A DNA stretch of 32,000 bases. Source: Candidatus Hermodarchaeota archaeon (GTDB lineage Archaea > Asgardarchaeota > Heimdallarchaeia > Hodarchaeales > Hodarchaeaceae). Shown one piece after another: positions 3 to 10,654 of the stretch. The notes beneath the pieces are model-generated. The model was given only the letters and a program-made list of their open reading frames with translations, searched no databases and was not told where the DNA came from. Where the stretch lies: assembly GCA_048886185.1 (NCBI GenBank), contig JBHLKY010000015.1, positions 70,298-102,297 of the forward strand, read 5' to 3'. The stretch's first letter is position 1. Each line of letters begins with the position of its first letter. Both the position numbers and the translations under genes were made by a program.

Positions 3-3000
3 TCATTAAAGTATTTTTTTAATCAGTGGCTTTCTTTAGAGGAAGTCCGTTATATAGAACCAAATCAAATTTATTCGATAGAACTAGTTCCAGATGATCC
101 AGATTGGTCTACTCAATGGGGCCCCCGAACAATTCAAGCAGATTTGGCTTGGGATATTCAAATGGGAGATCCTTCAACAATTCTGGTTGCAGTAATTGAC
201 ACTGGAATTGACTATAATCATCCAGATTTAAATACTCAATACGTCCCTCTTGGATACGATTGGGTAAATGATGATGATGATCCAATGGATGATCATTCCC
301 ATGGAACACATTGTGCAGGCATCATAGCAGCAACAATTAATAATGCTATGGGCATTGCAGGGATTGCCAACGTGCAGATAATGGCTGAAAAGTTTCTCGA
401 TGCTGGTGGGTCTGGTACTGAGGATGATGCTGCTGAAGCCATTATCCATGCAGTCGATCAGGGAGCAGATATCCTTTCAAATAGCTGGGGTGGAGGTGGG
501 CCATCTACAATCCTAAAAGATGCATTCACATATGCAGTTGACCATGATGTAATTATTGTTGGAGCAGCTGGAAACAGTGCATCTTCGTCTCCACATTACC
601 CTTCTGCTTATCCTGAAGTAATTTCAGTCAGTGCAACCGATAGCCGCGATAGTTTAGCATCTTTCAGTAATTATGGATCAACAATAGAGATATCTGCTCC
701 AGGAGTAGATATATATTCAACAGTCCCTGTAGAAATGGGGAGTTATGCTAGCTATAGCGGAACCTCGATGGCTTGCCCACATGTTTCTGGTGTAGCAGCA
801 CTAATTCTTTCAGAATTTCCAGATTGGACTACGGAACAAGTCAGAATACATCTAAGGGAAGGTACTGATGATTTAGGAGATCCTGGGTGGGATCAATATT
901 ATGGTTATGGTCGTTTGAACGCATATAAAGCAGTAGAACCCCCTCCTATACATAATCTCAAAATTTACTTAACAGCGCCTTCAGGATTGTCTCCAGGGTC
1001 ATCCACATTGGTTAATGTATCAGTGTATAATGTTGGTCAAGAAAATGAGACGAATGTATATGCAGAGCTGTGGATAAATGAAAATCTTGTTCAGAGTACC
1101 ATTTTTCCAAAAGTAATTAGTGGAACCTACAATTTCTTCTCCTATAATTGGTTAGTCATAGATGAAGGTGATTTTAATCTTACTGCATATGTTTCACCTG
1201 TAACGAATGAATCTAATATTATTGATAACTATGCTTACAAACTAGTAATTGTAACATATAATATGATCGGATTTATTTCTACCCATGGAGAAACGAATTT
1301 ACCGAATAATTTAAAACGATTTTATGAGAATTATAATTATTTTGTTGATGAAATCACCTCACCCCTTACCACAACGTTATTAAAGAACTATCAATATCTT
1401 TTCGTTGGAGAGAGTGGAGGAAGTTGGACACCTAGTGAAATCTTGGCAGTAGAGAATTACATTCAAGATGGTGGAGTATTTGTTGGAATTGGGGATACTG
1501 GTCCTGCGGATGGCACATCACAGATCGCTGCAAATCACGGGATTTTTTTTGCAGGTTTTAAGTCAGCTAAAGGTAGTGGACCTACTAAGATTATTGATCC
1601 CTACCATCCTTTAATGAAGAACGTTACAACTATCTTACTTCCCAGTCCCATTAATACTCTGAATGTTAATAATCCTGCTGTTCCCATTATTTGGGATTGG
1701 AATGGATCATATATTTATGGAGCTGCTGTTGATTTTGGTTCTGGCCATCTTCTTGTGTTATCAGACGATTTTTTTGATGTTATATATGCAGAAGACAATG
1801 AAGTAATGTTTGCTAATATATTAACTTGGACATATCGTCTAGATCACGACATCACAGTGTTTCTAGAAGCCCCGATAAACGTTCCCCAAAATAAACTGAC
1901 AATACTCAATGCTACAGTCAGAAATATCGGATTGAATGATGAAAATAACGTTGAGCTCCAAATTTGGATTAATAAAACCTTGAAAATCAGTCAGAACTAT
2001 CCTAGCCTCCCTGTGGGAACATCTAAGACGCTAAGCTACTCGTGGACACCAACTGTTAAGGGGACTTTCAATGTTACTACTTATGTTGTTCCCGTAGCCA
2101 ACGAAAACTTGGTTCTTAATAATTATGATACGGTTTCGGTTAGAGTTGTGTCTGATAGCAGTATAATCCTCTTCGATGAGGCTCATTACCCTGTTTACTC
2201 TATTGGTTCCAACCCTGCTTATGTTAGTGCTGGTGGATACTCTGAGTTTGCTAACGAGGTAATTACTGGAGGGTACAATATTGACACAATTGATCCAGGG
2301 ATAGTCATTGACCCTTCAATATTGAATGGAGTCAATGTGCTAATTATTATAGCTTCTCAGAATGCTTATACAACAGCAGAGCTCGATGCGATCGAGGCGT
2401 GGGTAAAAATGGGAGGATGTTTGTTATTAATTACAGATTGGGGAACATTTGGAAAACAAATGGATCCCTTAGCTGCTCGATTCGAGTTCGATTTTGCAAA
2501 CGATAGACTTAATGATTCTGATGATAATGTAGTGACTGGTTACAATTACCGTATATTCTATGATAGTACAAACATCCTTTCTCATCCTATTACGTTTGGA
2601 GTTTCCCGTGTTGAGATGTATGCTGGAGATGGTTTGGTCGCTGCTCCTATTGGCGAATTTCCCATCATTATTACAGATAATGATGGAACTGCTACTTGGA
2701 GTGAAGGATCAATTGCCTCCGCGGTTTCTTTAATAAGTGTCCTTGAGGGGGGTTCTGCTGGTGACGGTAGAGTTTGTGTTGTTGGTGACTCAAATCTATG
2801 GGATAATTTTTCTGACGCGGATAGTGATGGTGACCCAAATTTCTACGATAGTGATAATGAGATTTTAGCCCGGAATACTATTAATTGGCTAGCCACAGTC
2901 ATAGACAACATGCCCCCTATATTCACTGCATCTCCTAGTAACCTTACTTATCCTGAAGGAACTACAGGATATACACTTAGCTGGACTGCTACTGATACTA

Positions 3001-4625
3001 ACCCAGGGACATACACCATTACCCGAGATGGAGGAAAAGTTGCCAGTAATGTTTGGTATTCTGGCGTACCCATTAATTTAAATGTAGACGGTCTTCCTTT
3101 TGGTACTTACATCTTCAACTGTACTATATTTGATAAGATAGGCAACTCTAATTCTCATACAATCACCGTCACCGTGGTAGATTTTACACCTCCAGAGTTC
3201 ATTATCACTCCTAACGACCTTATCTATTCCAAGGGAACTACAGGACACACACTTAACTGGGTTGCTACTGATACAAATCCAAGGACATATATCATCTATA
3301 GGAATGGAACAAAAATCGAGACTGGATTTTGGGGATCTGACAATCCGATTACTATTAATGTAGATGGACTAGCAGTCGGATCATATTACTTTACAATCTT
3401 GGTTGAAGATTTGTATGGGAATTCTGCAATTGATACAGTGATAGTGACTGTAGTAGACACCACCCCCACTCTTACTTTGACAAGTCCTACTGATATCATA
3501 TATAATGAAAAGGAAACAGGATACAGCATCAACTGGACAGCCACGTCTCTATTCCCTGACACTTACATCATCTACAAAAATGGTACAGAAATCGATACTG
3601 GATCTTGGACATCTGGCGATCCGATTATTATTTATGTGGATGGACTAGCAGTCGGATCATATAACTTCACAATTGTGGTTGAAGATTCGTATGGGAATTC
3701 TGCAATTGATACAGTGATAGTGACTGTTGTTCATATCACCCCAACTCTTACTTTAACGAGTCCTACTGATATCTCATACAATGAGAGGGAAACAGGGTAC
3801 AATATTAACTGGACTGCCACGTCTCTATTCCCTGACACTTACATTATCTACAAAAATAGTACTAAAATCGATATTGGATTTTGGACATCTAGTAATCCGA
3901 TTACTATTAATGTGGATGGACTAGCAGTCGGATCACATAACTTCACAATTGTGGTTGAGGATTCGTATGGGAATTCCGTAATTGATACAGTGATAGTGAC
4001 TGTTGTTCCTATCACCCCAACTCTTACTTTAACGTGTCCTACTGATATCACATATAATGAAAAGGAAACAGGGTACAGTATCAACTGGACTGCTATATCT
4101 CTATTCCCTGACACTTACATCATCTATAAAAATGGTACAGAAATCGATGCTGGATCTTGGATATCTGACAATTCGATTACTATTAATGTGGATGGACTAG
4201 CAGTCGGATCACATAACTTCACAATTGTGGTTGAGGATTCATATGAGAATTCTGTAATTGATACAGTGATAGTGACTGTTATACCTATCACCCCAACTCT
4301 TACTTTTACAACTCCTGCTGATATCACATACAACGAAAAAAGAGGTCGAAATAATAACAATGACGGATCTATACCCCCAGAAAACACCGAAGATTGGTTT
4401 ATACCAGCGATTTTGTTAAGTAATGGAGCAATAGGTGGGATTTTCAGTTTAATAAAATTAAGGAAACGTTTTAATCACAACATAAAACGTAAACCTAATA
4501 TCGAAGAGTTATTCAGATTAACCGACTCAAAATCTATTCATGAGGATCCTATAATGAACAGGCAAATAAAGGAGATGGAACAGAAAATCGCGATTTTGAA
4601 AACTAAAGTATCTAAGAACGAGTGA
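3..4625 (+). CDS. Membrane-anchored S8 (subtilisin/thermitase-like) serine protease, multidomain, 5'-partial
   Basis: The frame is open from base 3 and reads ...EVRYIEPNQIYSIEL-VPDDPDWSTQWGPRTIQADLAWDI (propeptide end plus thermitase-like mature N-terminus), so the TTG at 144 is not the true start. Catalytic triad: VAVIDTG (Asp 198-200), HGTHCAG (His 300-302), GTSMACPHV (Ser 765-767); oxyanion AAGN. Then CARDB-like domain (~951-1250), GATase/DUF4350-like domain (~1260-1835), second CARDB-like (~1843-2155), second GATase/DUF4350-like (~2160-2895), Ig-like repeats, a hydrophobic segment WFIPAILLSNGAIGGIFSLI and a basic tail. Confidence 0.95.
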   Translation, partial: SLKYFFNQWLSLEEVRYIEPNQIYSIELVPDDPDWSTQWGPRTIQADLAWDIQMGDPSTILVAVIDTGIDYNHPDLNTQYVPLGYDWVNDDDDPMDDHSHGTHCAGIIAATINNAMGIAGIANVQIMAEKFLDAGGSGTEDDAAEAIIHAVDQGADILSNSWGGGGPSTILKDAFTYAVDHDVIIVGAAGNSASSSPHYPSAYPEVISVSATDSRDSLASFSNYGSTIEISAPGVDIYSTVPVEMGSYASYSGTSMACPHVSGVAALILSEFPDWTTEQVRIHLREGTDDLGDPGWDQYYGYGRLNAYKAVEPPPIHNLKIYLTAPSGLSPGSSTLVNVSVYNVGQENETNVYAELWINENLVQSTIFPKVISGTYNFFSYNWLVIDEGDFNLTAYVSPVTNESNIIDNYAYKLVIVTYNMIGFISTHGETNLPNNLKRFYENYNYFVDEITSPLTTTLLKNYQYLFVGESGGSWTPSEILAVENYIQDGGVFVGIGDTGPADGTSQIAANHGIFFAGFKSAKGSGPTKIIDPYHPLMKNVTTILLPSPINTLNVNNPAVPIIWDWNGSYIYGAAVDFGSGHLLVLSDDFFDVIYAEDNEVMFANILTWTYRLDHDITVFLEAPINVPQNKLTILNATVRNIGLNDENNVELQIWINKTLKISQNYPSLPVGTSKTLSYSWTPTVKGTFNVTTYVVPVANENLVLNNYDTVSVRVVSDSSIILFDEAHYPVYSIGSNPAYVSAGGYSEFANEVITGGYNIDTIDPGIVIDPSILNGVNVLIIIASQNAYTTAELDAIEAWVKMGGCLLLITDWGTFGKQMDPLAARFEFDFANDRLNDSDDNVVTGYNYRIFYDSTNILSHPITFGVSRVEMYAGDGLVAAPIGEFPIIITDNDGTATWSEGSIASAVSLISVLEGGSAGDGRVCVVGDSNLWDNFSDADSDGDPNFYDSDNEILARNTINWLATVIDNMPPIFTASPSNLTYPEGTTGYTLSWTATDTNPGTYTITRDGGKVASNVWYSGVPINLNVDGLPFGTYIFNCTIFDKIGNSNSHTITVTVVDFTPPEFIITPNDLIYSKGTTGHTLNWVATDTNPRTYIIYRNGTKIETGFWGSDNPITINVDGLAVGSYYFTILVEDLYGNSAIDTVIVTVVDTTPTLTLTSPTDIIYNEKETGYSINWTATSLFPDTYIIYKNGTEIDTGSWTSGDPIIIYVDGLAVGSYNFTIVVEDSYGNSAIDTVIVTVVHITPTLTLTSPTDISYNERETGYNINWTATSLFPDTYIIYKNSTKIDIGFWTSSNPITINVDGLAVGSHNFTIVVEDSYGNSVIDTVIVTVVPITPTLTLTCPTDITYNEKETGYSINWTAISLFPDTYIIYKNGTEIDAGSWISDNSITINVDGLAVGSHNFTIVVEDSYENSVIDTVIVTVIPITPTLTFTTPADITYNEKRGRNNNNDGSIPPENTEDWFIPAILLSNGAIGGIFSLIKLRKRFNHNIKRKPNIEELFRLTDSKSIHEDPIMNRQIKEMEQKIAILKTKVSKNE
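2904..4340 (+). repeat. Five full plus one truncated 276-bp (92-aa) tandem Ig-like stalk repeats in the protease
   Basis: Units start at 2904, 3180, 3456, 3732, 4008 and 4284 (partial, 19 aa). The motif gatggactagcagtcggatc recurs at 3363, 3639, 3915 and 4191 (276-bp spacing). Confidence 0.95.
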
Positions 4626-6151: not shown

Positions 6152-6772
6152 ATGAAAAAAATAAGTATGAAAACTCTAGTACCCCTAGGAGCCCTAGTTA
6201 TAACAAGTATAGTATTATTTGTTGTAGTAGCTCAACATACCCAGATGAGTAACTGGGAAAGTGTCACTTTTAGTGTCGAAGATACTGATGCATTTGATAT
6301 CCAGATTGAACCCCAATATCCTATTGATGGATCAGTAGATTGCTATAGTCTACGTTATCGTTGCTGGTATACTGTAATTATAATCGTCACCTATCATTGC
6401 AATGGTATTTGGGCGAAGTTGGTTGTACGTTTCTGGTCGTATGATACAACAGCTGGGAAATACTTACCATTCCCCGAAATTGATCCCTCTGTTTGTGAAC
6501 TTATGTTGTCTGACCATCCAGTCGATCCTATTGGTCCACTAATCACCCCTAGCGACGTGGCATTAACTTATAAAACAGGTACCGTAGGTACTCCACTGCC
6601 CAATTACCTTGAAGGTGAATCTCCTGAATACGAATGGGCTGATAGCACTCCTTTAAGTTACTCACTTGCATACGAAATGAAATTCAGGGTTAATCCTGGT
6701 TATCCCCCAAATTCCGAACTCCGAATTTTCATCAGCATGTGGGGAGACCCAACCATACCCCTAACACCATAA
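6152..6772 (+). CDS. Secreted hypothetical protein (206 aa), beta-rich, candidate fibre subunit
   Basis: Basic N-terminus plus hydrophobic helix (MKKISMKTLVPLGALVITSIVLFVVVA), then a beta-strand-like domain with four Cys and no C-terminal anchor. RBS present. Confidence 0.85.
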   Translation: MKKISMKTLVPLGALVITSIVLFVVVAQHTQMSNWESVTFSVEDTDAFDIQIEPQYPIDGSVDCYSLRYRCWYTVIIIVTYHCNGIWAKLVVRFWSYDTTAGKYLPFPEIDPSVCELMLSDHPVDPIGPLITPSDVALTYKTGTVGTPLPNYLEGESPEYEWADSTPLSYSLAYEMKFRVNPGYPPNSELRIFISMWGDPTIPLTP

Positions 6773-6778
6773 GATGTT

Positions 6779-6805
6779 GAGTATGGGGGGATTCCTCCCT
6801 TATTC
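6779..6805 (+). terminator. Weak intergenic hairpin after the 206-aa gene
   Basis: gagtatggggg / ctcccttattc pairs imperfectly with G-U pairs, followed by T-rich sequence. Confidence 0.25.
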
Positions 6806-6894
6806 TACATCTTGTTTAAGAATAAACATGGTATAATAATCACGATAAAGCATAATGAAAAATTATTTTGCGAAAAACTACAGAGGACAATTAA

Positions 6895-8481
6895 ATGGGA
6901 ATAATCACTAAAATTCGATCGCAGCGGAAGAGGATTAACTGGTGGAGAGAGTATTCTCTTTCTCTAATAATTATTTTAGTGATGACTATCGCTTCTGGAC
7001 TAGCATCTTCTCAGTATATTCTTATGAGCGATTGGTACTCTGTGGGTCCTTTTCTCGTAGGATCAGAAGAAGATACGTGTCCTCCCTTGGTCGAGGCAGC
7101 TTTTGTTCCTATCCACGTAGAAAGGACAGAAGGAACTTTCACAATTGATTTCACAGTAATTGATGATATAGATCCTGAACCAGATGTCACCGCAATTCTC
7201 CAAGTTTTTTTGCCAGAAGGCTGGCGAGATTGGGATACTATTGAACATGAGGATGGATCTAAGATCAAAATAGAAATCGATTATGATGATGAAGAAATAG
7301 AAATAAAAGGTCCTAATTCAGAAAAAATCTTGAATGATCTCATAAATCTCGGGGGATTAGTAATAGATAATGGTCAGCTTCTGAAGATCGAGCTAAAAGA
7401 TGATAAAGTAGAGATAGAGCTAATAGAACCCCAAACAGGTAAAATAGAACTAGAAGATTTTGAAGGAGAGCCTATTTCAATGGTGAATAAATTACTTAAG
7501 GTTACAGCTGTGGATGACGCTGGGAATTTAGGTATCGCTACTGCGACCCCATCTTTCGATGATGATAAGATAGACACATGTTCCTCACCGATAGAATTTA
7601 TAGAAGAACAGATAGTCTTATTAGAAAATATAAAGAGTTCAGAAGCAGAAGAAGAAATTGAAACCGCTATAGAATATCTTAGCATGGCGATTGAAGCCTT
7701 CAAAATAGACCTCATAAGATGTGCAATGAATAAAATTAGACTTGCGGTCGAAAACTTGATAGATGCCCAAGATGAAGATGGGGCAGATACTCAAGAAGTA
7801 ATAGATAATCTAATCAATTGGGTTCGATGTATAGTAGATCAAGCTATGAATACTGCTATTGATTTGCTAGGAGAGGAAAATTCACACATCATTGAAGCAC
7901 AAGAAAAATGTGGAACTGCTTTCTTAAAAATAGACCAAGGAAAATACGATGAAGCAATCACGAAATTCAAGGAAGTATATACTGATCTTATGAAAGAATT
8001 GCATAATTATATTTCTACCCTCAGCGTATCTACAACAGACACTTCTGCAACAATTACACTAAGATTATATAGAGTAGGTTTTGTGGTATGCTATTATGGT
8101 ATTGGTACGCCAACATACTCAACTGAAGTTACATCATTATCTCGTAATCATGAAATCATTTTAACAGGACTCATTCCCGACTCTGAATATTCATACTATC
8201 TCGAAATTACTTTTGATCTTGAATTTCCTGATAACCCTGGGGGGAATACCGATCGATATCCATATGATTTAAGCTATCTAACCTTTACAACGACTGATGA
8301 GATGAAAATCACAACTGAAGAACCAACCACTAAAGATGATTCTCTAGGACTTTCTTCTAGCTGGAGTATTTCTTCTGATTTGAGTGATAACACTCCAGGA
8401 TTTGAAATAATTCTTATCATAGTGTGCCTGCTTTCAGGTGTTTTCTTATTTAAAAGAAGAAAAAAATCTAAGCAACCATGA
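6895..8481 (+). CDS. PGF-CTERM-anchored cell-surface protein (528 aa)
   Basis: N-terminal basic and hydrophobic signal, acidic beta-rich region ending LKVTAVDDAGN, helical region, FN3-like segment (SATIT...HEIILTGLIPDSEYSY) and Thr/Ser linker. The C-terminus TPGF-EIILIIVCLLSGVFLF-KRRKK is the tripartite archaeosortase (PGF-CTERM-type) signal. GAGGA upstream of the ATG. Confidence 0.9.
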   Translation: MGIITKIRSQRKRINWWREYSLSLIIILVMTIASGLASSQYILMSDWYSVGPFLVGSEEDTCPPLVEAAFVPIHVERTEGTFTIDFTVIDDIDPEPDVTAILQVFLPEGWRDWDTIEHEDGSKIKIEIDYDDEEIEIKGPNSEKILNDLINLGGLVIDNGQLLKIELKDDKVEIELIEPQTGKIELEDFEGEPISMVNKLLKVTAVDDAGNLGIATATPSFDDDKIDTCSSPIEFIEEQIVLLENIKSSEAEEEIETAIEYLSMAIEAFKIDLIRCAMNKIRLAVENLIDAQDEDGADTQEVIDNLINWVRCIVDQAMNTAIDLLGEENSHIIEAQEKCGTAFLKIDQGKYDEAITKFKEVYTDLMKELHNYISTLSVSTTDTSATITLRLYRVGFVVCYYGIGTPTYSTEVTSLSRNHEIILTGLIPDSEYSYYLEITFDLEFPDNPGGNTDRYPYDLSYLTFTTTDEMKITTEEPTTKDDSLGLSSSWSISSDLSDNTPGFEIILIIVCLLSGVFLFKRRKKSKQP

Positions 8482-8529: not shown

Positions 8530-9162
8530 GCTGGTCTAGGGCAAACTGGCCGAACATGGGGGATTTATAGAGGATTGTACTCAAATGAGAAAATCGTCCG
8601 CAATATCGTCATACTAGCAAAAGGGATGAATTCAGGTATCTATCCCCTCTCAACTACCAGTTATTAACCAAAATTTACACAAATCTTTGAAGAAAACCCA
8701 TTTTTACGTATCTCCAGCACAGAGTGATCTGAATTAGGTTTTTACTTAATAAGAAAGATGTTGAGTATTATTTCTCAACCTAAATTCCTGAAGCATGTCC
8801 AAGATATGCGATCTGAGTTCAGTGGGGGATTATTGGAACTTCAAGAAAGTTATTCTGAGAAGATAGTAGATGTCAGAGGCCACGAACTGATGTGGGGGAT
8901 TGAATTTATAGATGAGTTCACCTCATTACATTTTACTTTAACAATGATTAAAAAGGGGGTGTGGTGTGATTATTACTGTTATCACAAGGTTACAAATAAA
9001 TTTTTCCCACTGACTATTATTAGAACTACGGATATAGACGAGATCCTTAAAAGGACAGGAAAGTCCCTAAAGGAAATTAAAATAAATCATGAAATAAAAG
9101 AAAAATCGAATGTAATACAAATCTCTAGATTCTTATTGAATAACATTAAATACATCATGTAA
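8530..9162 (+). pseudogene. Class-III PLP-dependent aminotransferase remnant (C-terminal part only)
   Basis: One frame reads AGLGQTGRTWG...NIVILAKGMNSGIYPLS (PLP-Lys-like codon 8620-8622)...FEENPFLRISSTE*SELG...VRGHELMWGIEF...KFFPL. In-frame stops are TAA 8665-8667 and TGA 8725-8727. The N-terminal part is absent. The track ORF 8758..9162 is only the last piece. Confidence 0.85.
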
Positions 9163-9199
9163 TGAATTGATAATCGATTTCAATAAAGGGCAGGAAACC

Positions 9200-10654
9200 A
9201 TGATAATCATCAGAAATAAAGTTCTAAGATTTAGTCTGAGTATCTTCTGGTTTTTAACAACATTAATTTTGGTTGTTCCATTACTTCAAACGGATTGTAT
9301 TGATTATTATCCCTCTGATGATGAATTTGAGATCCTAGGGTTTAATGTGCAAATTTACTTTGATCCTAAACCCGAACCGGAACCCAAAACCATTTCTTCA
9401 GGCATTGATAAAATTAAGGGGATCATTAATATCACTGGGGAGTTTTCAGGGTATTTTTTTGGAATTATAATTGATTCTTATGGTACCATCTATAACAATG
9501 AGACGATTTTTTCAAACGAAAATATTGGTAAACTCACCATCCAACTCAACTCTTCCCATAAGGCTTATACGGAAGAAATTCTAATTGAAACACCAAACTC
9601 AAATGGTCAATTCACAGTTTACATGGTAGCATACTTTGTTTGGTGGGAGGAAATGACTTACGATTTTTCTGGTGATAAAGTCGTAAAACTTGATGCTGAA
9701 TACCAAAAGCTAGGGTTTGATCTAGCAAATATAATCATTCCAAGTGCGATTTTTCTCTTCTGTATCAGTATGATATTTATCTCTGTGTTTGCATATAGGA
9801 AAATACACAAGCAGAAGGATATTGATACTAATGAGATTAATAAGCGATTAGAGCAAATAATCATATTTAATAAACAGTTTTTTACTCGGTCAGGTGGTTT
9901 TAAAGATTTAGATCTCAATTCCATGATTTCTTGGGACAAACCTGGACAGCTCAATTTATTAGAACAGAGAAAACAAGAGCTAGAACAAAAATTGAAGAAA
10001 TTAGAACCAAGACAGAAAGAATTAAATGGGATTGCTAAAAGATTAGAGGAAGCTAGAAATCCTGTTCTCAATAATGATCTCTTTAAGGTTATTTCATCTC
10101 ACTTTATTCATGCAAGCAGAAAAAGAGAAAATTATCCATCAATCAATCATGTTGAAGAAAAGGTTCGTGAATTAAGGAACTCTCTCAGGGAAGGTAGATG
10201 GGATGAACTACAAGATCTTGAGAAGGTAAAGCTTGCATGGATAATATGCGAATCCTACATACGAGAAACAAACACCGAAGAGGTTTTATTGGGAAAAAAC
10301 AGAGATCCTGAAAAAGAAGCTATAGCGCTTACAATGTATGTCAAGAACTTTATTCAAACCGAAACCAATACACGGTGGCCTCCAGATCGTAACCTAATAT
10401 TAAAAACAATAGAAGAGTCAAAAACAGATTTGGATATAATTAGTAATTTAATAATAAAATTGAGAAAATCAAATAAAAAATCCATAAGAAAATACTTGAA
10501 AAAATGTGAAACCATAAAGCAAGAAGCAGAAGATAATTTGAAATGGCTTAAATCAAGGGAGGCTGATATTGATACTGATATAGCAAGTCGAAATTTAATA
10601 AGATTAAATAAATTAATCAATTTGCTAGATAATGAGCTTAATTTGTTAAGCTGA
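9200..10654 (+). CDS. Hypothetical membrane protein: N-terminal signal/TM, ~160-aa external domain, TM, ~285-aa basic coiled-coil cytoplasmic region
   Basis: Hydrophobic segments FSLSIFWFLTTLILVVPLL and LANIIIPSAIFLFCISMIFISVFAY, the latter followed by RKIHKQK. Heptad-like runs LEQRKQELEQKLKKLEPRQKELNGIAKRLEE. ATG 9200 preferred; the track start is 9167. Confidence 0.85.
   Translation: MIIIRNKVLRFSLSIFWFLTTLILVVPLLQTDCIDYYPSDDEFEILGFNVQIYFDPKPEPEPKTISSGIDKIKGIINITGEFSGYFFGIIIDSYGTIYNNETIFSNENIGKLTIQLNSSHKAYTEEILIETPNSNGQFTVYMVAYFVWWEEMTYDFSGDKVVKLDAEYQKLGFDLANIIIPSAIFLFCISMIFISVFAYRKIHKQKDIDTNEINKRLEQIIIFNKQFFTRSGGFKDLDLNSMISWDKPGQLNLLEQRKQELEQKLKKLEPRQKELNGIAKRLEEARNPVLNNDLFKVISSHFIHASRKRENYPSINHVEEKVRELRNSLREGRWDELQDLEKVKLAWIICESYIRETNTEEVLLGKNRDPEKEAIALTMYVKNFIQTETNTRWPPDRNLILKTIEESKTDLDIISNLIIKLRKSNKKSIRKYLKKCETIKQEAEDNLKWLKSREADIDTDIASRNLIRLNKLINLLDNELNLLS

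Follow-up and report, generated by a model that had tools for sequence, protein, structure and literature searches.

Pilins of the chaperone-usher type carry short N-terminal strands with alternating hydrophobic residues, which are common to the subunits of an operon and fit the groove of a partner, giving rise to strand-groove specificity. The N-terminal extensions of these pilins have been compared with TasA of Bacillus subtilis, whose partner TapA combines a complete immunoglobulin (Ig) fold with a flexible N-terminus; the latter is homologous to the N-terminus of TasA, to which it is donated to start the filament (PMC10151520). In Pyrobaculum, AbpB, encoded beside AbpA, has been proposed as the donor of the first complementing strand (PMC9245690). 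Asgard archaea are the closest prokaryotic relatives of eukaryotes, and the building and decoration of their surface is almost unstudied. Here we describe two adjacent genes of a Candidatus Hermodarchaeota archaeon, located in a window of 32,000 nucleotides (the whole stretch of DNA that was analysed, positions 70,298 to 102,297 of contig JBHLKY010000015.1), which encode a small secreted protein (P0001, 206 amino acids (aa)) and a large surface protein (P0002, 528 aa) sharing a peptide directly behind the signal helix. This peptide is under selection at the protein level, belongs to a separate module of the large proteins and, in most loci carrying such a pair, is matched between the two proteins, which may point to an assembly through interchangeable strands.

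The TapA-TasA system (PMC10151520, PMC9674648) resembles the Asgard pair in that neighbouring genes encode a secreted subunit of ~200-260 aa and a larger, cell-associated accessory protein, the latter combining a complete Ig-type domain with a flexible N-terminus that resembles the N-terminus of the subunit. P0002 has the layout of TapA or AbpB, with a complete Ig-type domain, a free, subunit-like N-terminus and an adjacent subunit gene, the analogy being one of layout. The Asgard pair differs from TapA-TasA in that PF12389 and SipW-type signals find no match and the locus encodes no dedicated signal peptidase, in anchoring the large protein by a C-terminal Heimdall-CTERM, and in a matched strand that changes type among close relatives; polymerisation of its small protein is putative. 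AbpA-AbpB (PMC9245690) is alike as an archaeal combination of a Sec-secreted subunit of ~200 aa with an adjacent, larger, beta-rich secreted protein, in its processing by generic signal peptidase, and in that its relation to TasA is hidden from plain hidden Markov model (HMM) searches. It differs from the pair described here in that the latter has an Asgard (Heimdall/Hodarchaeales) host, families unrelated to it in every sequence test run, an Ig-like domain that is a different, widespread module, and an explicit lipid-anchor-type sorting signal. With chaperone-usher pilins the pair has in common the short, alternating-hydrophobic N-terminal strands matched among co-encoded subunits; however, an archaeal cell lacks an outer membrane, none of the genes in the window was identified as a chaperone or usher, and the anchoring direction and assembly machinery would be other. 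A literature search returned no paper linking Asgard archaea to such a pair and none mentioning Heimdall-CTERM.

A peptide shared by two adjacent secreted proteins

The genome holding the window (G000) comprises 4.84 Mb in 75 contigs at 35% G+C, and relatives of its proteins carry the source names Heimdallarchaeota and Hodarchaeales. The genes of P0001 (6152..6772) and P0002 (6895..8481) lie on the forward strand. Residues 1-27 of P0001 (6152..6232) read as a signal peptide with a basic N-terminus, a hydrophobic core and a small-x-small site, the likely site of cleavage being VVA|Q; apart from this helix the protein has no hydrophobic segment and, as an earlier note on this DNA had stated, no anchor at the C-terminus. 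Directly behind the helix follows the extension QHTQMSNWESVTFSV (6233-6277), and its counterpart QYILMSDWYSVGPFLV (7012-7059) stands directly behind the hydrophobic helix of P0002. With one gap, the two peptides share eight identities plus an N/D exchange, and their coordinates and residues had been given exactly in the earlier note.

Among all six-frame open reading frames (ORFs) that reach 50 aa or more in the genome of 4.84 Mb, the motif MS[DN]W.SV occurs twice, in P0001 and P0002 only, while 0.026 occurrences are expected from composition. Local alignment of the two 30-residue post-signal segments scored 35, compared with 16.7 +/- 3.6 in shuffles (p ~0.001). BLASTP of P0001 against P0002 found no similarity beyond the shared peptide, confirming by search what had been judged by eye, that the remainders of the two proteins are unlike. 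The post-signal sequences of the 24 other Heimdall-CTERM proteins of the genome are unrelated and none contains the shared peptide, indicating that it is not a general secretion feature here. Inspection of all N-termini revealed no class III signal peptide of the archaeal type IV pilin kind, [KR]-[GA] being absent before the hydrophobic stretch; the shared peptide sits after this stretch and not before it as in type IV pilins. A generic peptidase recognition site, which the earlier note had offered as the alternative, is an unlikely explanation, since other secreted proteins lack the peptide and close relatives differ in it.

Matching within loci and divergence between loci

The gene pair is conserved in relatives and recurs in at least six further loci, having been found in G010, G019, L024, L029, L030 and L031 and on two further contigs (Heimdall/Hodarchaeales). 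In the closed sister genome G010, a large orthologue 67% identical to P0002 directly follows a 215-aa secreted protein, and in G019 a 292-aa short form of the large protein is preceded by a secreted protein, also of 215 aa. In L024 a 301-aa gene comes after one of 193 aa, and the contig of P0008 (523 aa) carries a 1168-aa gene, a 208-aa gene and the large gene in this order. A profile search added four proteins of the same architecture with three readable loci, in which the gene order is small-large-small (L029), large-small (L030) and small-large (L031). The gene following the large gene in L029 (6877-7446) and L030 (983-1621) encodes a small secreted protein of the P0001 family, referred to here as type B, so that the full cassette may consist of small A, large and small B. 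For the contigs carrying P0008, P0015 and P0016 the small-protein sequences were not included, and that of P0015 was assessed by gene positions. Across 83 genomes of the class and 400 of the phylum, the small and large families were found only in G000, G010 and G019, with the domain of the large protein alone in G014; the pair was found in three of the 22 searched genomes of the genus, and a scan of metagenome contigs returned the L029 contig again and nothing else.

Comparing the post-signal peptides revealed that in most loci they are alike inside the locus and unlike between loci. In G000 the small protein has MSNWESV-TFSV and the large protein MSDWYSVGPFLV; the corresponding small and large peptides are LSEKAKLQMNV and LSNKAKIQFEF in G019, MLIISNT and MIIISNT in L024, RLD...DIAVTG and RLDIDLGVTG in G010, and S.LQFYVISDDD and SLGPYQISDED in L030. 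In local alignments of automatically taken segments, same-locus pairs averaged a score of 25-31 and cross-locus pairs 18-24, and the observed same-locus sum was reached by 2-12 of 720 label permutations, depending on the segment window used. The peptide itself changes between loci, but the match inside most loci is retained.

The residues identical between small and large peptides are mostly encoded by different codons, such as AGT vs TCT for Ser and AGA vs CGT for Arg, with a third-position identity ranging from 1/6 to 6/10. Keeping the residues with different codons indicates that selection acts on the peptide, and recent gene conversion is ruled out as the source of the match. In support of the earlier note, the shared motif is a functional, selected feature of a conserved gene pair.

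The extension is a separate module of the large proteins

P0002 is composed, in this order, of a signal peptide, the N-terminal extension, an Ig-like domain, a helical region, an FN3-like region, a Ser/Thr (S/T)-rich linker and Heimdall-CTERM. The extension (QYILMSDWYSVGPFLVGS, 7012..7065) is flexible in the AlphaFold2 (AF2) model, residues 1-20 of which are coil with no secondary structure and a predicted local distance difference test (pLDDT) of 51-57. The Ig/PKD-like beta-sandwich with an insert behind it (residues ~58-225, 7066..7569) is complete in the same model, with a pLDDT >90 (49-row alignment). The motif of the large protein thus belongs to a flexible stretch that is not part of the complete Ig-like domain, in line with the earlier note, which had this protein donate the strand.

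The conserved domain of the large proteins begins at D-T-x-P-P, behind the extension, and the identities of the two parts are decoupled. P0009 and P0015 are 80% identical in the domain and 9% in the extension, and P0002 and P0005 77% and 27%, respectively, whereas P0005 and P0008, with the same 77% in the domain, have extensions 95% identical; for P0002 and P0016 the values are 48% (domain) and 42% (extension), and for P0014 and P0018 51% and 48%. The extensions thus fall into discrete types, and the type tracks the family of the small protein: the MSxW type occurs with type-B small proteins (P0001, P0164), and the EVEII type accompanies P0162 and P0165, themselves mutually related at 8e-9.

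Fold and anchoring of the large protein

VIA-align relates the N-domain of P0002 to Ig/PKD domains with Z 6-7 across 70-100 residues, while Foldseek found no match in the PDB at E<=0.001 and a shape search of the Atlas gave only Ig/PKD clusters at template modelling (TM) scores of 0.33-0.41. The domain is a widespread, unnamed module with no Pfam family, represented by 382 cluster representatives at E<=0.001, in which it mostly forms the C-terminal end of big multidomain surface proteins that have no such extension. In G014 (L019, 3976-5442, reverse strand) it follows a putative repeat or propeller-type region, as judged by eye. Besides the G010 orthologue, P0002 has an orthologue in P0008, which is 65% identical across residues 30-250. 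The helical region (residues ~232-370) and the FN3-like region (~372-470), together spanning 7589..8304, gave weak Pfam matches (SNAP 0.028, Pur_ac_phosph_N 0.12) and are confined to the long forms, the shorter ones (276-314 aa) having neither; sister genomes encode proteins of 813-818 aa that match residues 372-482.

The C-terminus of P0002, which the earlier note had called PGF-CTERM, indeed has PGF, a transmembrane helix and a basic tail (8389..8466), but it misses the cut-off of Pfam PGF-CTERM (PF18204, 11.8 vs 18.8 bits) and matches NCBIfam Heimdall-CTERM instead (NF045529, 29 bits vs the cut-off of 24). This match, obtained by hmmscan, covers residues 499-524 at the extreme C-terminus and is the best of 26 Heimdall-CTERM matches in the genome, 18 of which exceed the cut-off. 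P0002 is a putative archaeosortase substrate, an exosortase/archaeosortase gene being found in the same genome: three genes with this domain lie elsewhere, on C10, C8 and C7, with TIGR04178 over its cut-off. In the same genome PF09721 gave no match and the ArtA-type TIGR04125 remained below its cut-off (29.9 vs 75 bits). Substrates of the PGF-CTERM/archaeosortase A system in Haloferax and other Euryarchaeota are alike in the S/T-rich linker followed by PGF, helix and basic tail and in the presence of exosortase/archaeosortase-domain genes, and they differ from P0002 in the sorting-signal family matched and in the ArtA-type enzyme.

The small secreted proteins

Across loci the small proteins measure 189-215 aa and share the order of signal peptide, extension, 'h-x-h-E-x-x-Y-P', a 'WY' strand and a C-terminal 'F-x-h-x-P-x-x-P'. 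Relatives of P0001 are only P0163 (BLASTP 8e-26) and P0164 (1.5e-5), both encoded beside large-type genes. P0001, P0004, P0006, P0010, P0162, P0163, P0164 and other small proteins matched no Pfam or NCBIfam family, and the small proteins have almost no homologues in 400 Asgard genomes. Word-indexed searches of 5.8 billion proteins with P0001 and alignment A1 returned only proteins already collected, and sequence and profile searches of the PDB (A3, A4, A6, P0004, P0006) gave nothing significant.

A strong stem-loop immediately follows the small-gene stop codon (6769..6815, forward strand; -25.1 kcal/mol, z -4.9, 0/200 shuffles), and a hairpin with a U-run is also found 3' of the small gene in G010 (L017), G019 (L018), L024 and L029. 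The stem-loop is possibly a terminator, an attenuator or a 3' stabiliser, and it would fit a much higher transcript level of the small gene, as for a major subunit. The public runs found to contain this DNA are four sediment metagenomes of one study, from which the DNA may derive, with no RNA run among them.

Proposed assembly and its alternatives

We propose as a possible, still tentative reading that the matched N-terminal strand would link the anchored large protein to the free small protein, forming an analogue of TapA-TasA and AbpB-AbpA with swappable strands. After removal of the signal peptides, both proteins would expose an extension of ~15-20 residues patterned as h-[LIM]-S-[DNE]-x3-h-x-h. 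The large protein would be kept at the cell by its Heimdall-CTERM anchor and, its own Ig-like domain being already complete, its free extension would fill a site of the small protein by beta-strand complementation, the same site that the small protein's own extension could fill. Such binding would tether, and possibly nucleate, small-subunit assembly at the surface, like TapA for TasA and as proposed of AbpB for AbpA, and the strands would be alike inside a locus and switch jointly between loci because both must fit one site. We infer binding via the extension, strand insertion and any polymerisation; the interpretation of the earlier note, a polymerising small subunit with a lipid-anchored base that donates the same strand, is accordingly partly supported, in that the matched, selected and modular strand and the TapA-like layout hold. 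The wider claim, an undescribed Asgard surface-assembly system whose Heimdall-CTERM-anchored protein would be joined to one or two orphan subunits through interchangeable, matched strands, of discrete specificity types swapped among close relatives, is at present doubtful; such a strand code could set the mounting of subunits on the anchor or separate self from non-self assemblies. If the strand-link reading holds, it would give Asgard archaea their first proposed assembly by strand complementation, in families that no profile recognises and tied to the Heimdall-CTERM sorting signal, a known kind of system in a lineage where none has been described before. Even if it is wrong, the matching of the peptides betrays a locus-specific signal under selection that needs explanation.

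Several results weigh against strand complementation between the two proteins. The co-variation test covers the six loci with both sequences, all of one lineage, and the match inside the locus is weak in L029 and modest in G010. Homology between the small proteins of different loci is unproven, profile-profile probabilities being 0.3-2.4%. The AF2 model of P0001 is unusable (pLDDT 38.5), its four-row alignment A1 mixing small proteins that are not demonstrably homologous, and Atlas models of small proteins are of low confidence (pLDDT 0.47 and 0.58); an open groove or a jelly-roll in the small protein is accordingly hypothetical. Complexes of mature P0001 (residues 28-206) with P0002 (residues 38-227) were predicted with ESMFold2 alongside three controls, and the hetero-complex scored 0.58 and the best control 0.00, which speaks for the pairing. 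This support is weak: the three runs differ (0.75, 0.32, 0.58) and reported no interface. The runs agree in at least 4% of contacts, and the partner pLDDT is at least 80. In calibration, 58 of 80 solved complexes attained the mark, as did 2 of 110 mismatched pairs; only 7 of the 80 solved complexes, but both passing mismatches, did so at <=0.60. Furthermore, the pLDDT of the small chain is 69-74 with the true partner vs 65-71 with unrelated partners, indicating that the partner does not visibly complete the small-protein fold. The hetero-pair prediction, a check named in the earlier note, consequently lends the pair weak support but provides no interface that would place the motif in the partner's sandwich.

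Relationship to the TasA superfamily was not recovered either. PF12389 matched none of the seven small proteins named above at E up to 5-10, nor the large proteins, and exceeds its cut-off in 0 of 400 Asgard genomes, G000 included; no SipW-type signal was matched in P0001, P0002 and ten other family proteins (NCBIfam, E up to 1-10), and no solved TasA-superfamily chain was found by profile for the small proteins. The TasA-like mature N-terminus and the SipW link suggested in the earlier note thus find no counterpart in TasA/camelysin or SipW-type HMMs, and [LIM]-S-[DNE] resembles the TasA-type F-S-D by eye only. However, divergent superfamily members such as AbpA and CanX need HHsearch (PMC9245690, PMC12518558), and members are often <20% identical and visible to HHsearch only (PMC12518558), so that the missing HMM match lowers the claim of membership without excluding the mechanism. 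Two leads lie below the level where chance matches are rare, namely the Atlas model of P0163 with a TM score of 0.51 to a cluster having PF12389 in 27% of its members, and P0012, the features of which score 0.84 to a camelysin cluster.

The within-locus match could also arise if the extension were a locus-specific recognition or processing tag, read by a dedicated partner that cleaves, modifies or sorts both proteins, which then need not bind one another. A candidate partner is encoded at the start of the window (3..4625, forward strand), a membrane-anchored S8 subtilase with CARDB/PKD-like repeats (Pfam Peptidase_S8 3.8e-63, CARDB, K319L-like PKD) whose ORF starts ~600 bp upstream of the window. 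Where enough context is available, most loci have an S8-like gene beside or near the pair (G000, G019, L029), as probably does the contig of P0008, where the 1168-aa gene, likely the subtilase, has the same position. Assembly of type V pili is triggered by a protease, and P0006 has a weak match (E 0.057) to the Bacteroides 'putative cell adhesion protein' 4k4k, both of which count for such a tag. Yet the N-terminal 399 aa of the subtilase, catalytic domain included, are 65% identical between G000 and G019, whose tags, MSNWESV and LSEKAKLQ, are unrelated. The pair in G010 adjoins only the non-catalytic C-terminal half of a subtilase-like gene, the extent of this gene being uncertain as several ORFs of the G010 and G019 loci (L017, L018) are broken by masked X/N stretches, and the best S8 orthologue is ~600 kb off; S8 orthologues are present too in sister genomes in which the pair was not found. 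These observations make the subtilase doubtful as the partner, and housekeeping signal peptidase needs no tag varying among close relatives; a tag read by this or another factor is in our view improbable.

Two further explanations keep the peptides similar by other means. If the extensions paired mutually or stacked in register, in an amyloid-like or beta-zipper manner, a 1:1 or small hetero-complex would form, with no groove insertion and no filament. As in-register pairing also requires similar sequences, it explains the within-locus match equally well, the alternating hydrophobic runs in the extensions (VTFSV, IQFEFL, VEVEII) are in its favour, and the weak complex support leaves the interface position unspecified. 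On the other hand it has no direct evidence, gaps in G000, G010 and L029 make the match imperfect, and the TapA/TasA precedent for matched N-termini works through sandwich insertion (PMC10151520), and we rate such pairing as improbable to the same degree as the tag. Alternatively, the match may be a historical leftover with no joint function, stemming from an old partial duplication and from exchange of the large-gene 5' end and the small gene as a cassette. In most cases the large 5' end is directly preceded by the small gene, so that linkage alone would co-transmit the types, and the locus is patchy and bracketed by a duplicated gene fragment. This explanation is nevertheless very unlikely: the residues are retained despite scrambled synonymous sites, which argues for purifying selection on the same peptide in both copies, the remaining signal peptides and bodies have nothing in common, and P0005 and P0008 retain more identity in the extension than in the domain. 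Nor is linkage to the large gene's 5' end the whole reason for matching, since the peptides also match in L030, which has its type-B gene downstream of the large one. Strand complementation that joins the free small protein to the anchored large one is therefore the reading that we retain, with the tentativeness given above.

Neighbouring genes

Downstream of P0002, the 3' half of a class-III aminotransferase gene lies at 8758..9162 (forward strand; Pfam Aminotran_3 8.4e-11), and a second 3'-half copy, 66% identical in aa and 74% in nucleotides, is located at C15:67752-68290, ~11 kb upstream. The two fragments flank a ~10.5-kb block of the S8, small and large genes, which suggests an old insertion or segmental duplication; given these bracketing copies and the presence of the pair in three of 22 genus genomes, the block looks like accessory, exchangeable DNA. 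Within the block, a third motif copy was considered in the S8 protein, whose signal helix ends in 'IILMSS', and, comprising four residues only, it was treated as chance.

Next to the aminotransferase fragment, a 495-aa membrane protein with no family is encoded at 9167-10654 (forward strand), and its homologue in G010 (L017, 1831-2193, reverse strand) lies a few kb from the pair, indicating that the wider neighbourhood is syntenic. The two membrane proteins have a similar N-terminal 'DDWPSEAEFEVLGFNIQV' stretch. Further along the window lies a giant ORF of >6768 aa on the reverse strand (11644-31998), which runs past the window edge and contains many Big_13 and CBM53-like repeat matches as well as a right-handed beta-helix region.

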